Below are positions 36,402 through 37,796 of a DNA stretch of 64,000 nucleotides, piece by piece; the stretch's first letter is position 1, and every line of letters begins with the position of its first letter. Where the stretch lies: positions 1 to 64,000 of the IMG/VR virus record IMGVR_UViG_2713896905_000004; one strand, 5' to 3'. This DNA is from a virus (lineage: Duplodnaviria; Heunggongvirae; Uroviricota; Caudoviricetes). A program made the position numbers and the translations under genes. Under the pieces are notes generated by a model, which saw only the letters and a list, made by a program, of their open reading frames with translations, was not told the origin of the DNA and did no database searches.

Positions 36402-37007
36402 TTATTTTTTTGCCGATACCATAGCTTGTATAATGGTATCAATATCGCGATTATTTAACATGAAGATGGGGATACCATTAATCTTGCCCGTTTTATTGGT
36501 ACTCATCACGCAAAGCCCCTCATACATCCCTCGGGTTTTTGTGAAATTAGCGACTGGTGGAGTAGTGTAATTCCCTTTAAAGTGCATCCCCGCTGATTCA
36601 TAAAAAGGAACTAAAGCAGACTGGCAAATCAATCCGACTTCATTTGGAAATGCAAGTATTTCTGCCAGTATCTTACTTCCAATCCCATTACCACGATATT
36701 GCTCATATACATAAATTTTATGGCAGTACAATGGTAAGTTTCCTGATGGATGTCCAAAAATTAAGGCGTACCCGAACAACTGTCCTTCATTAGTAAAGCC
36801 CATAATGCGTAAATGTCCGGCTCGGTAACACTCTTCAAATACGTCTATTATGTGGCTTCGTGCCGCTTTCAGTTCCTCTTCTGTCGCAAACATCATCATC
36901 CCCATCAGCGATGGGGTACAGGCCAGATCCTGAATAATCCCATTAGCTTCATTTTCGAAGATTAATGGTAGGTGTGGTACAATTTCGTTTGTCGAAGTGT
37001 CAGGCAT
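36402..37007 (-). CDS. GNAT-family N-acetyltransferase (201 aa)
   Basis: Acetyl-CoA-binding motif A 'YVYEQYRGNGIGSKILAEILAF'; AT-rich; occupies the position of P1 res/mod. Confidence 0.8.
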   Translation of the reverse strand: MPDTSTNEIVPHLPLIFENEANGIIQDLACTPSLMGMMMFATEEELKAARSHIIDVFEECYRAGHLRIMGFTNEGQLFGYALIFGHPSGNLPLYCHKIYVYEQYRGNGIGSKILAEILAFPNEVGLICQSALVPFYESAGMHFKGNYTTPPVANFTKTRGMYEGLCVMSTNKTGKINGIPIFMLNNRDIDTIIQAMVSAKK

Positions 37008-37154
37008 AGAAAAACTCCTTCGTTTTTTGAGCTGATGTTATCAGCGATAGTGATGAAGGAGAAACAATTTTGACTCTCTTAAAGAGGTTGCCCTTCTTGA
37101 TAGAAAACGGAAAAATGGTAAACAACGATCTCCGTTATTTAAACAAATAGTCGG

Positions 37155-37796
37155 TTAAAAGAAATTTCCTTTTCCTGTTAACAATCCTTGCGGAACTTGC
37201 TTTTGCGTCAGCGCATGGGTACCGCGAATTATGTTAATCAGAGGGCTTAGTAACGATGGTTCCTGGCGTGCCTCAACTTCTCCAGCCATTGCCCTGATGT
37301 AGTCGGCGCTGGCAACGTTGTTGTATTCCGTTGCGAAACAGCATAACAATGTCAGAACATGCTCTGTTGTTATTTCGCTCCAGTTGATGTTGAAAAATTC
37401 ATCGCCTTTTTTATCGTGTTCTGAATCGAAGATGCTTTGGTGAAGGATGTATTTGCCGGATTCCTTGCGCGGTAACTTGATCGCTTTCTGGCGTTCCAGC
37501 TCCTTGTAAATCTGCATTGCTTCAATCAGTACCGGCCTGCCGTTCGTGAAGGGATCGCGCAACCTTACACGCTGGCCAACTCGACCGGTAATAAAGCTGT
37601 TTTCCTCTTCCACCAGCACGATAAAACCCTTTTCCTCTTTTTCTCGCAATTCGCGCAGCAGCTGGAGTTCCATGTCACGGCGGCGTTCAGGGTAGCTGGT
37701 CCGATCAGCCATTATCAGCTCGTTGTTGATCCATGCAGCAGTCATTGACGCCGGTTTGCCGACGTTCATCGAAACAACGCATATTTTCTTATCCAT
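37155..37796 (-). CDS. hypothetical protein (213 aa from ATG at 37796)
   Basis: GGGGG RBS upstream of ATG 37796; upstream part of the longer ORF looks non-coding. Confidence 0.5.
   Translation of the reverse strand: MDKKICVVSMNVGKPASMTAAWINNELIMADRTSYPERRRDMELQLLRELREKEEKGFIVLVEEENSFITGRVGQRVRLRDPFTNGRPVLIEAMQIYKELERQKAIKLPRKESGKYILHQSIFDSEHDKKGDEFFNINWSEITTEHVLTLLCCFATEYNNVASADYIRAMAGEVEARQEPSLLSPLINIIRGTHALTQKQVPQGLLTGKGNFF

Follow-up and report, generated by a model that had tools for sequence, protein, structure and literature searches.

An uncharacterised GNAT acetyltransferase gene forms a single-gene cassette in the lxc-mat interval of a P1-like phage-plasmid and is a candidate defence gene

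The stretch of DNA analysed here, positions 1 to 64,000 of the virus record IMGVR_UViG_2713896905_000004 (hereafter the window), is from a P1-like phage-plasmid. It raises the question of what a gene for a GNAT acetyltransferase is doing at the site where canonical P1 carries the res and mod genes of the EcoPI restriction-modification system. An earlier reading of the letters, made without database searches (the sequence-only reading), had seen in this place a GNAT and an unknown neighbour, and had considered a tRNA-acetylating toxin or an aminoglycoside acetyltransferase. As described below, the GNAT gene is an uncharacterised single-gene acetyltransferase cassette located in a hotspot of defence genes, and it is a reasonable candidate for a defence gene itself.

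The cargo cassette and the hotspot between lxc and mat

The two open reading frames (ORFs) in question are located on the minus strand, at the positions where the sequence-only reading had put them: the GNAT ORF of 201 amino acids (aa) at 36402-37007, and a 213-aa ORF at 37155-37796, counted from its ATG, which appears in the ORF list as 262 aa from an upstream GTG. The flanking genes were also correctly recognised: darB, ulx and lxc precede the two ORFs, and ref, c8 and cre follow them. In canonical P1 the gene order is cre, c8, ref, mat, res, mod, lxc, ulx, darB, and the interval from mat to lxc contains res/mod plus IS5, while the window has no res/mod.

The extent of the replacement had to be revised. 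It had been placed at 36402-37796, but blastn break-points bring it to about 36304-37153. The lxc DNA is 96-98% identical to that of P1, RCS47 and SJ46 as far as position 36280-36303 or so. Backbone homology stops at 36298 (P1) and 36303 (RCS47), just past the lxc stop codon, and restarts at 37154-37163, at the mat stop codon, in comparisons with P1, RCS47, SJ46 and other relatives. The cassette sits between the stop codons of these two convergent backbone genes. The GNAT gene indeed replaces EcoPI res/mod, but the 213-aa ORF is not in the replaced segment. Similarly, the AT-richness attributed to both ORFs applies to the GNAT cassette (39.6% GC versus 47.6% for the whole window) but not to the 213-aa ORF, whose GC content (47.8%) is close to the window mean. 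A small-ORF search found no second credible ORF in the cassette, the others being short and overlapping. An RNA element was also considered there and rejected, as the cassette has no Rfam match at E<=1.

The 213-aa ORF, previously listed as unknown, is mat (maturation control), a P1 backbone gene. All 213 residues of its product align with residues 38-250 of P1 Mat at 93% identity, and the protein matches phrog_1837 from end to end (E=2.7e-110). In a megablast search against phage genomes, the DNA from about position 37150 onward corresponded to the P1 backbone annotated mat and ref. The gene is annotated as mat in P1, RCS47 and SJ46, and the records of relatives list a 213-aa "maturation control protein". 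Of the two genes, P1 therefore has mat in this place but not the GNAT. The suggestion that the 213-aa protein is the partner or antitoxin of the GNAT is not supported, since mat belongs to the backbone and also occurs in P1-like elements without a GNAT gene.

The lxc-mat interval (36283-37154 in the window) is a hotspot for interchangeable cargo in P1-like elements, a feature of the position that the sequence-only reading had missed, together with the fact that the other occupants are defence or candidate-defence genes. In P1 the slot holds EcoPI res/mod and IS5 (about 5 kb), transcribed in the direction opposite to mat. In SJ46 it holds a gene for a 373-aa RelA/SpoT protein, at the same position and on the same strand as the GNAT; in Ro157c2YLVW, a helix-turn-helix protein and a hypothetical protein; and in JL22, a 316-aa protein. 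In RCS47 it is empty, with 39 bp from lxc to mat. According to the junction sequences, the cargo types begin to differ exactly at the two stop codons, and each has its own GC-rich hairpin after lxc. Both flanks of the slot were found in 703 plasmid records, and the occupants were viewed in an evenly spaced sample of 60. These were SIR2-family, RelA/SpoT, PIN-domain, DUF2971 or GNAT proteins, or else the interval was too long to bridge (res/mod-sized). Among these occupants, the SIR2 protein matches the PADLOC families PDC-S25 and ThsA, the PIN protein PDC-S34, the DUF2971 protein PDC-S31 and CapRel PDC-S33. Of the 703 plasmid records, 22 (about 3%) have the GNAT in the slot.

The slot protein of SJ46 is CapRelSJ46 (PDB 7ZTB, E=1.4e-250), a validated anti-phage fused toxin-antitoxin, with expression from its native promoter (PMC9712102). 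Like the GNAT, it is a single-gene module in the same slot and on the same strand, directly downstream of mat. However, CapRelSJ46 is a RelA/SpoT pyrophosphokinase acting on tRNA, with a fold and chemistry unrelated to those of an acetyltransferase, and it is validated and recognised by PADLOC, whereas the GNAT is a candidate only and has no PADLOC match. EcoPI res/mod shares the slot and is likewise accessory, since the site is empty in RCS47, but it consists of two large genes transcribed oppositely, from the lxc side, and has no kinship with the GNAT in sequence or mechanism. Type III restriction-modification, CapRel, dGTPase and PrrC have been reported in P1-like elements in a study that does not mention the GNAT (bioRxiv 10.1101/2025.09.12.675607), and a literature search found no paper describing the lxc-mat interval as a hotspot.

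Two further observations concern the slot. OP279344, a P1 derivative recorded as "P1 del res del mod", has two unnamed coding sequences (233 and 229 aa) there, which are presumably engineered markers. In the comparison locus L017, the homology break-points on the mat side are at equivalent positions.

The GNAT family and its genomic contexts

Judged from its sequence, the 201-aa protein is a member of the GNAT superfamily in which the acetyl-CoA motif and the conserved tyrosine are intact. Its matches to three Pfam GNAT models exceed the gathering cut-offs (given in brackets): PF13508 at 31.7 (27), PF13673 at 30.1 (23.6) and PF00583 at 29.9 (20.7). The motif A quoted in the sequence-only reading, QYRGNGIGSKIL, is found at residues 103-114. 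Its core, R105-G106-N107-G108-I109-G110, follows the Q/R-x-x-G-x-G/A pattern that binds the acetyl-CoA pyrophosphate. R105, G106, G108, G110 and Y136 are invariant in 18 homologues, Y136 being located on helix alpha-4; the stretch Y94-C95-H96-K97, on strand beta-4, is invariant as well, and the N-terminal helix of the family is acidic and highly conserved. The AlphaFold model, which is confident (predicted local distance difference test, pLDDT, 87.6), has the alpha/beta fold of a GNAT, with three helices ahead of one GNAT core and, after it, a tail of about 30 residues ending in a helix.

The family is small and patchy. A word-indexed search returned 25 relatives, all from Enterobacterales, and when 1.84 billion representatives were searched exhaustively with a profile, only 56 clusters reached E<=1e-10; beyond that threshold the matches grade into generic GNATs. 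Most full-length matches are colinear proteins of about 190-210 aa, the others being shorter fragments. Pairwise ratios of nonsynonymous to synonymous substitutions (dN/dS, Nei-Gojobori) of 0.1-0.25 indicate that the gene is under purifying selection; positive selection, which the low-looking amino acid identity had brought into consideration, was rejected on these ratios. Every member of the family included in the computation is acidic, with isoelectric points (pI) of 4.3-5.9 and net charges of -4 to -15, a bulk property of the whole protein.

Two alleles of the GNAT gene are found in the slot, one 98-99% identical to that of the window and the other 84-86% identical. Between the window allele and the allele type of the L002/L003 plasmids, dN is 0.09 and dS 0.6. 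PDB entry 9S30, named only "GNAT family N-acetyltransferase", has the same length and is about 84% identical over residues 1-199 (E=1.4e-114). It is the E. coli allele that about 20 plasmids of E. coli and E. fergusonii carry in the lxc-mat slot. The protein of this allele has therefore already been purified and its structure solved. The entry is missing from structure libraries ending 2026-04-08 and was probably released after that date. A literature search found no paper on this GNAT or on 9S30; its function may be known to the depositors.

Wherever the gene is found, its annotation is generic. At E<=1, the only NCBIfam models matched, all far below threshold, were ArsN1a (14.5 bits, cut-off 170), RimI (14.5, cut-off 86.4) and the ElaA-like PRK10314 (12.6, cut-off 171), and the only full-length match among the PHROGs was a family of unknown function. 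The best profile matches outside the family were AANAT, SSAT, thialysine, phosphinothricin and AAC(2') acetyltransferases (E=3e-4 to 0.03, identities of 12-23%), AAC(2') appearing at E~0.03 in the PDB profile search.

The sequence-only view of the GNAT as accessory cargo of a mobile element is borne out by its distribution. Of 5,426 complete E. coli genomes, 19 have the gene; in each of these it is plasmid-borne, and no chromosomal copy was found. A tblastn search of 50,697 phage records gave no match, and the gene is seen on plasmid-form prophages rather than in deposited phage isolates. Besides the lxc-mat slot, it occurs in two further phage-plasmid settings with C1-like repressor and StbA partition genes, in a Raoultella lambdoid prophage (on the opposite strand, moron-like), on Klebsiella IncFII plasmids downstream of repA and near McrBC, in an Enterobacter chromosomal island adjoining two NACHT proteins, in an IS-flanked Serratia islet, beside a resolvase and an EcoRII system, and on a phage contig distantly related to E. 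coli phage DCP80. The location is that of a defence hotspot or island in that slot occupants match PADLOC families and homologues lie near NACHT, McrBC and EcoRII genes.

An all-against-all blastp comparison found nothing in common among the neighbours of the gene across the contexts examined. Because these neighbours share nothing, the GNAT gene is taken to be the whole module. Two-gene and toxin-antitoxin models were rejected, as there is no second credible ORF in the cassette and no conserved neighbour in these contexts.

The Enterobacter island contains DUF7706, a 340-aa protein, the GNAT homologue, three small ORFs and the two large NACHT proteins. It was found at two different chromosomal sites and therefore appears to be mobile itself. 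On the phage contig (L032), the homologue (2433-3041) is 46% identical and is located on the opposite strand between lysis and tail genes; the same contig encodes a tail-tip protein that shares 40% identity with its counterpart in the 141-kb Escherichia phage DCP80.

Expression signals and neighbouring backbone features

The features of the locus are listed in Table 1. The GNAT gene has a leader that is kept between contexts: a TGnTAAYAT element 36-43 nt before the ATG together with an AAGGA-type ribosome-binding site was found in 8 of 11 unrelated contexts, and DNA homology between contexts spans the ORF plus about 40 nt upstream. This element is probably an extended -10 promoter that travels with the gene. 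In locus L007, a 95-aa ORF overlapping the GNAT start covers this conserved, non-coding-like leader and is probably spurious.

Table 1. Features of the window around the GNAT cassette (window coordinates).
Feature	Position	Strand	Basis or remark
darB	28796-35563	+	ORF list
ulx	35597-36037	+	ORF list
lxc, modulator of C1, left backbone flank	36034-36282	+	ORF; annotated lxc in P1, RCS47, SJ46
GC-rich hairpin GCCCGG-CACTCGA-CCGGGC	36298-36316		After lxc stop, backbone/cargo junction; read from sequence
Cargo cassette, ~850 bp, one gene	36304-37153	-	blastn versus P1, RCS47, SJ46, others
GNAT, 201 aa	36402-37007	-	ORF list, Pfam
Shine-Dalgarno AAGGAG	37015-37020	-	7 nt before GNAT ATG; AAGGA/AAGG kept across contexts
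TGATAACAT, candidate extended -10 (TGnTAAYAT)	37035-37043	-	36 nt upstream of GNAT ATG
mat, 213 aa from ATG	37155-37796	-	ORF, homology to P1 Mat
P1 Pmat/LPmat equivalent	37927-37957	-	Position transferred from P1 annotation
P1 Omat (C1 operator) equivalent	37978-37995	-	Position transferred from P1 annotation
ref	37986-38546	-	ORF list
c8	38793-39104	-	ORF list
cre	39155-40186	-	ORF list

The GNAT gene is also directly downstream of mat in the same orientation, without a strong terminator between them. The control region upstream of mat agrees with P1 2615-2845 at 229 of 231 aligned bases; it drives mat, possibly with read-through into the GNAT gene. In the DNA that separates Pmat/LPmat from the start codon (ATG) of the 213-aa Mat, a hairpin resembling a terminator, AAGCCGCCGCTGGTGGCTT and then a T-run, was observed at 37818-37836 on the minus strand. 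It is identical in P1, where it falls within the longer, 250-aa mat frame annotated there, which suggests either that the short mat start is genuine or that mat is attenuated.

Elsewhere in the backbone, a 131-aa ORF (40183-40578, minus strand) overlaps the start of cre by 4 nt, at the position occupied by the 73-aa cra in P1 and the L002/L003 plasmids. This spot beside lox/cre may be another variable site. The plasmid closest to the window over the GNAT is pESA138_1 of E. albertii. Upstream of ulx, where the window has darB, it bears F18-type fimbrial genes (FedE, chaperone) and a gene for a DsbA-family protein; it also has a copy of IS200C between ref and c8 and an additional 184-aa ORF between mat and ref.

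Candidate functions of the acetyltransferase

A function in conflict is proposed because of the anatomy of the locus, the hotspot, and the repeated carriage of the gene on mobile elements and islands. The reading favoured here, with a chance that we would put somewhat below even, is that the GNAT is an acetyltransferase expressed in the lysogen that takes part in phage or mobile-element conflict by acting on a cationic target. The gene would work as a self-contained module, with its own ribosome-binding site, probably its own extended -10 promoter, and no need of a partner gene. Its product, if expressed in the lysogen, would catalyze the acetyl-CoA-dependent N-acetylation of a positively charged target, which could be a lysine or the N-terminus of an invader protein, or a polyamine-like amine. 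This acetylation would shield the lysogen and the element from rival phages or mobile elements, making the gene a candidate single-gene defence or exclusion function. A cationic target fits the acidity of the family (pI 4.3-5.9) and its weak profile matches to AANAT and SSAT (E~3e-4). A bolder form of this proposal, which we regard as rather doubtful, is that a constitutive, partner-less acetyltransferase represents a new kind of single-protein anti-phage immunity, which would directly inactivate a component of the incoming phage, or deplete or modify a cationic cofactor that phages need, and which would be traded as a cassette of about 850 bp among the phage-plasmids, prophages, conjugative plasmids and defence islands of Enterobacterales.

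Several points weigh against a defence function exerted in the lysogen. The GNAT matches none of the families of PADLOC-DB v2.0.0 at E<=1, and structure and sequence comparisons yielded no substrate-specific relative. Guilt by location is indirect, as hotspots may carry non-defence cargo too. In the other contexts the neighbours are mostly not recognised defence genes, PADLOC giving a single weak match, to one NACHT protein, so that the support from "defence islands" is modest. The relative on the large-phage contig would fit a phage-offensive role equally well. With regard to expression, a two-hexamer consensus promoter scan found no minus-strand promoter at the candidate -10, and mat is C1-repressed and expressed late in P1, so that expression of the GNAT might be lytic rather than lysogenic.

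This last arrangement bears directly on counter-defence or host take-over, in which the GNAT would acetylate a host immunity protein or another host protein to help the element establish itself or replicate. P1 mat has C1-controlled and late promoters, and the GNAT lies just downstream of it in the same orientation without a strong terminator. The anti-restriction genes darB and ulx are nearby, and the family occurs on phages, on a conjugative plasmid and on a large-phage contig. There is also a precedent in AcrVA5, a GNAT anti-CRISPR that acetylates Cas12a (PMC10799925). The likeness of the present protein to AcrVA5 is, however, that of a generic GNAT fold (rank 26), AcrVA5 being a minimal GNAT of about 95 residues against 201 here, and the GNAT of the window is in a defence slot rather than an anti-defence one. 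Nor is Cas12a known as a feature of P1's E. coli hosts. Every identifiable alternative occupant of the slot is of defence type and none is anti-defence; CapRelSJ46, a defence gene, has the same position and orientation as the GNAT; and the gene is also found in chromosomal islands beside NACHT proteins. Counter-defence is considered unlikely, although it is, with detoxification, a serious rival of the favoured reading. The occupants of the slot argue equally against small-molecule detoxification, a trait unrelated to phages in which the GNAT would acetylate and inactivate an amine antibiotic, a bacteriocin-derived toxin or excess polyamine. The best profile and structure matches outside the family are to small-molecule amine acetyltransferases (AANAT, SSAT/SpeG-type, AAC(2'), phosphinothricin), over the motif A/B core, and these share with the GNAT an acidic character that suits cationic small molecules; phage-plasmids are moreover described as carriers of resistance genes. 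These matches are weak, however, the family has an N-terminal three-helix region and a C-terminal tail of its own, and no curated model was matched, the best NCBIfam resistance model, ArsN1a, being far below its cut-off. No integron, resistance transposon or other resistance gene was seen in the contexts viewed. Detoxification is considered about as unlikely as counter-defence. The aminoglycoside acetyltransferase of the sequence-only reading is unlikely too, no NCBIfam AAC model being matched at E<=1.

The two remaining explanations have still less in their favour. The other proposal of the sequence-only reading was a tRNA-acetylating toxin like TacT, AtaT or ItaT, which would be kept in check by the 213-aa neighbour or else by auto-inhibition. 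Toxins of this type, KacT included, share with the present protein the GNAT fold, a similar size and carriage on mobile elements; the slot also hosts the fused toxin-antitoxin CapRel, and a chain described as a "bacterial toxin" (7byy_C) ranks 27 in the Foldseek comparison, with a TM score of 0.40, as the sole toxin there. But the neighbour is Mat, the cassette has no small antitoxin-like ORF, and no conserved neighbour accompanies the gene in the contexts examined. In the model, which consists of the GNAT core and the 30-residue C-terminal tail, there is no further domain to act as a fused antitoxin. Profile similarity to these toxins is limited to the generic GNAT core, and the 60 best PDB profile matches include no solved GNAT toxin. 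GNAT toxins that bind tRNA use basic surfaces, while the present family is acidic in bulk. A toxin is therefore scarcely probable. A neutral or metabolic hitch-hiker with a housekeeping-like role, outside conflict and resistance, would agree with the generic annotation met throughout. It is very unlikely in view of the purifying selection on the gene, its restriction to plasmids among the E. coli genomes, its repeated embedding in mobile elements and islands, and the small, patchy family.

Taken together, the GNAT of the window is best regarded as candidate defence cargo. Since a crystal structure of an allele exists, the question of its substrate is directly testable. If the GNAT protects lysogens, stand-alone acetylation would join the short list of single-gene immune mechanisms, and the lxc-mat interval, with about 700 sequenced plasmids that share its flanks and carry interchangeable cargo, would be a productive hunting ground for new defence genes. 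Because P1-like elements are frequent in E. coli and Salmonella from clinical and livestock sources and serve as transducing vectors, the cargo that they carry affects the outcome of phage therapy and the host range of gene delivery. Should the protein prove to be detoxifying or anti-defence instead, it would still represent an uncharacterised family confined to mobile elements.

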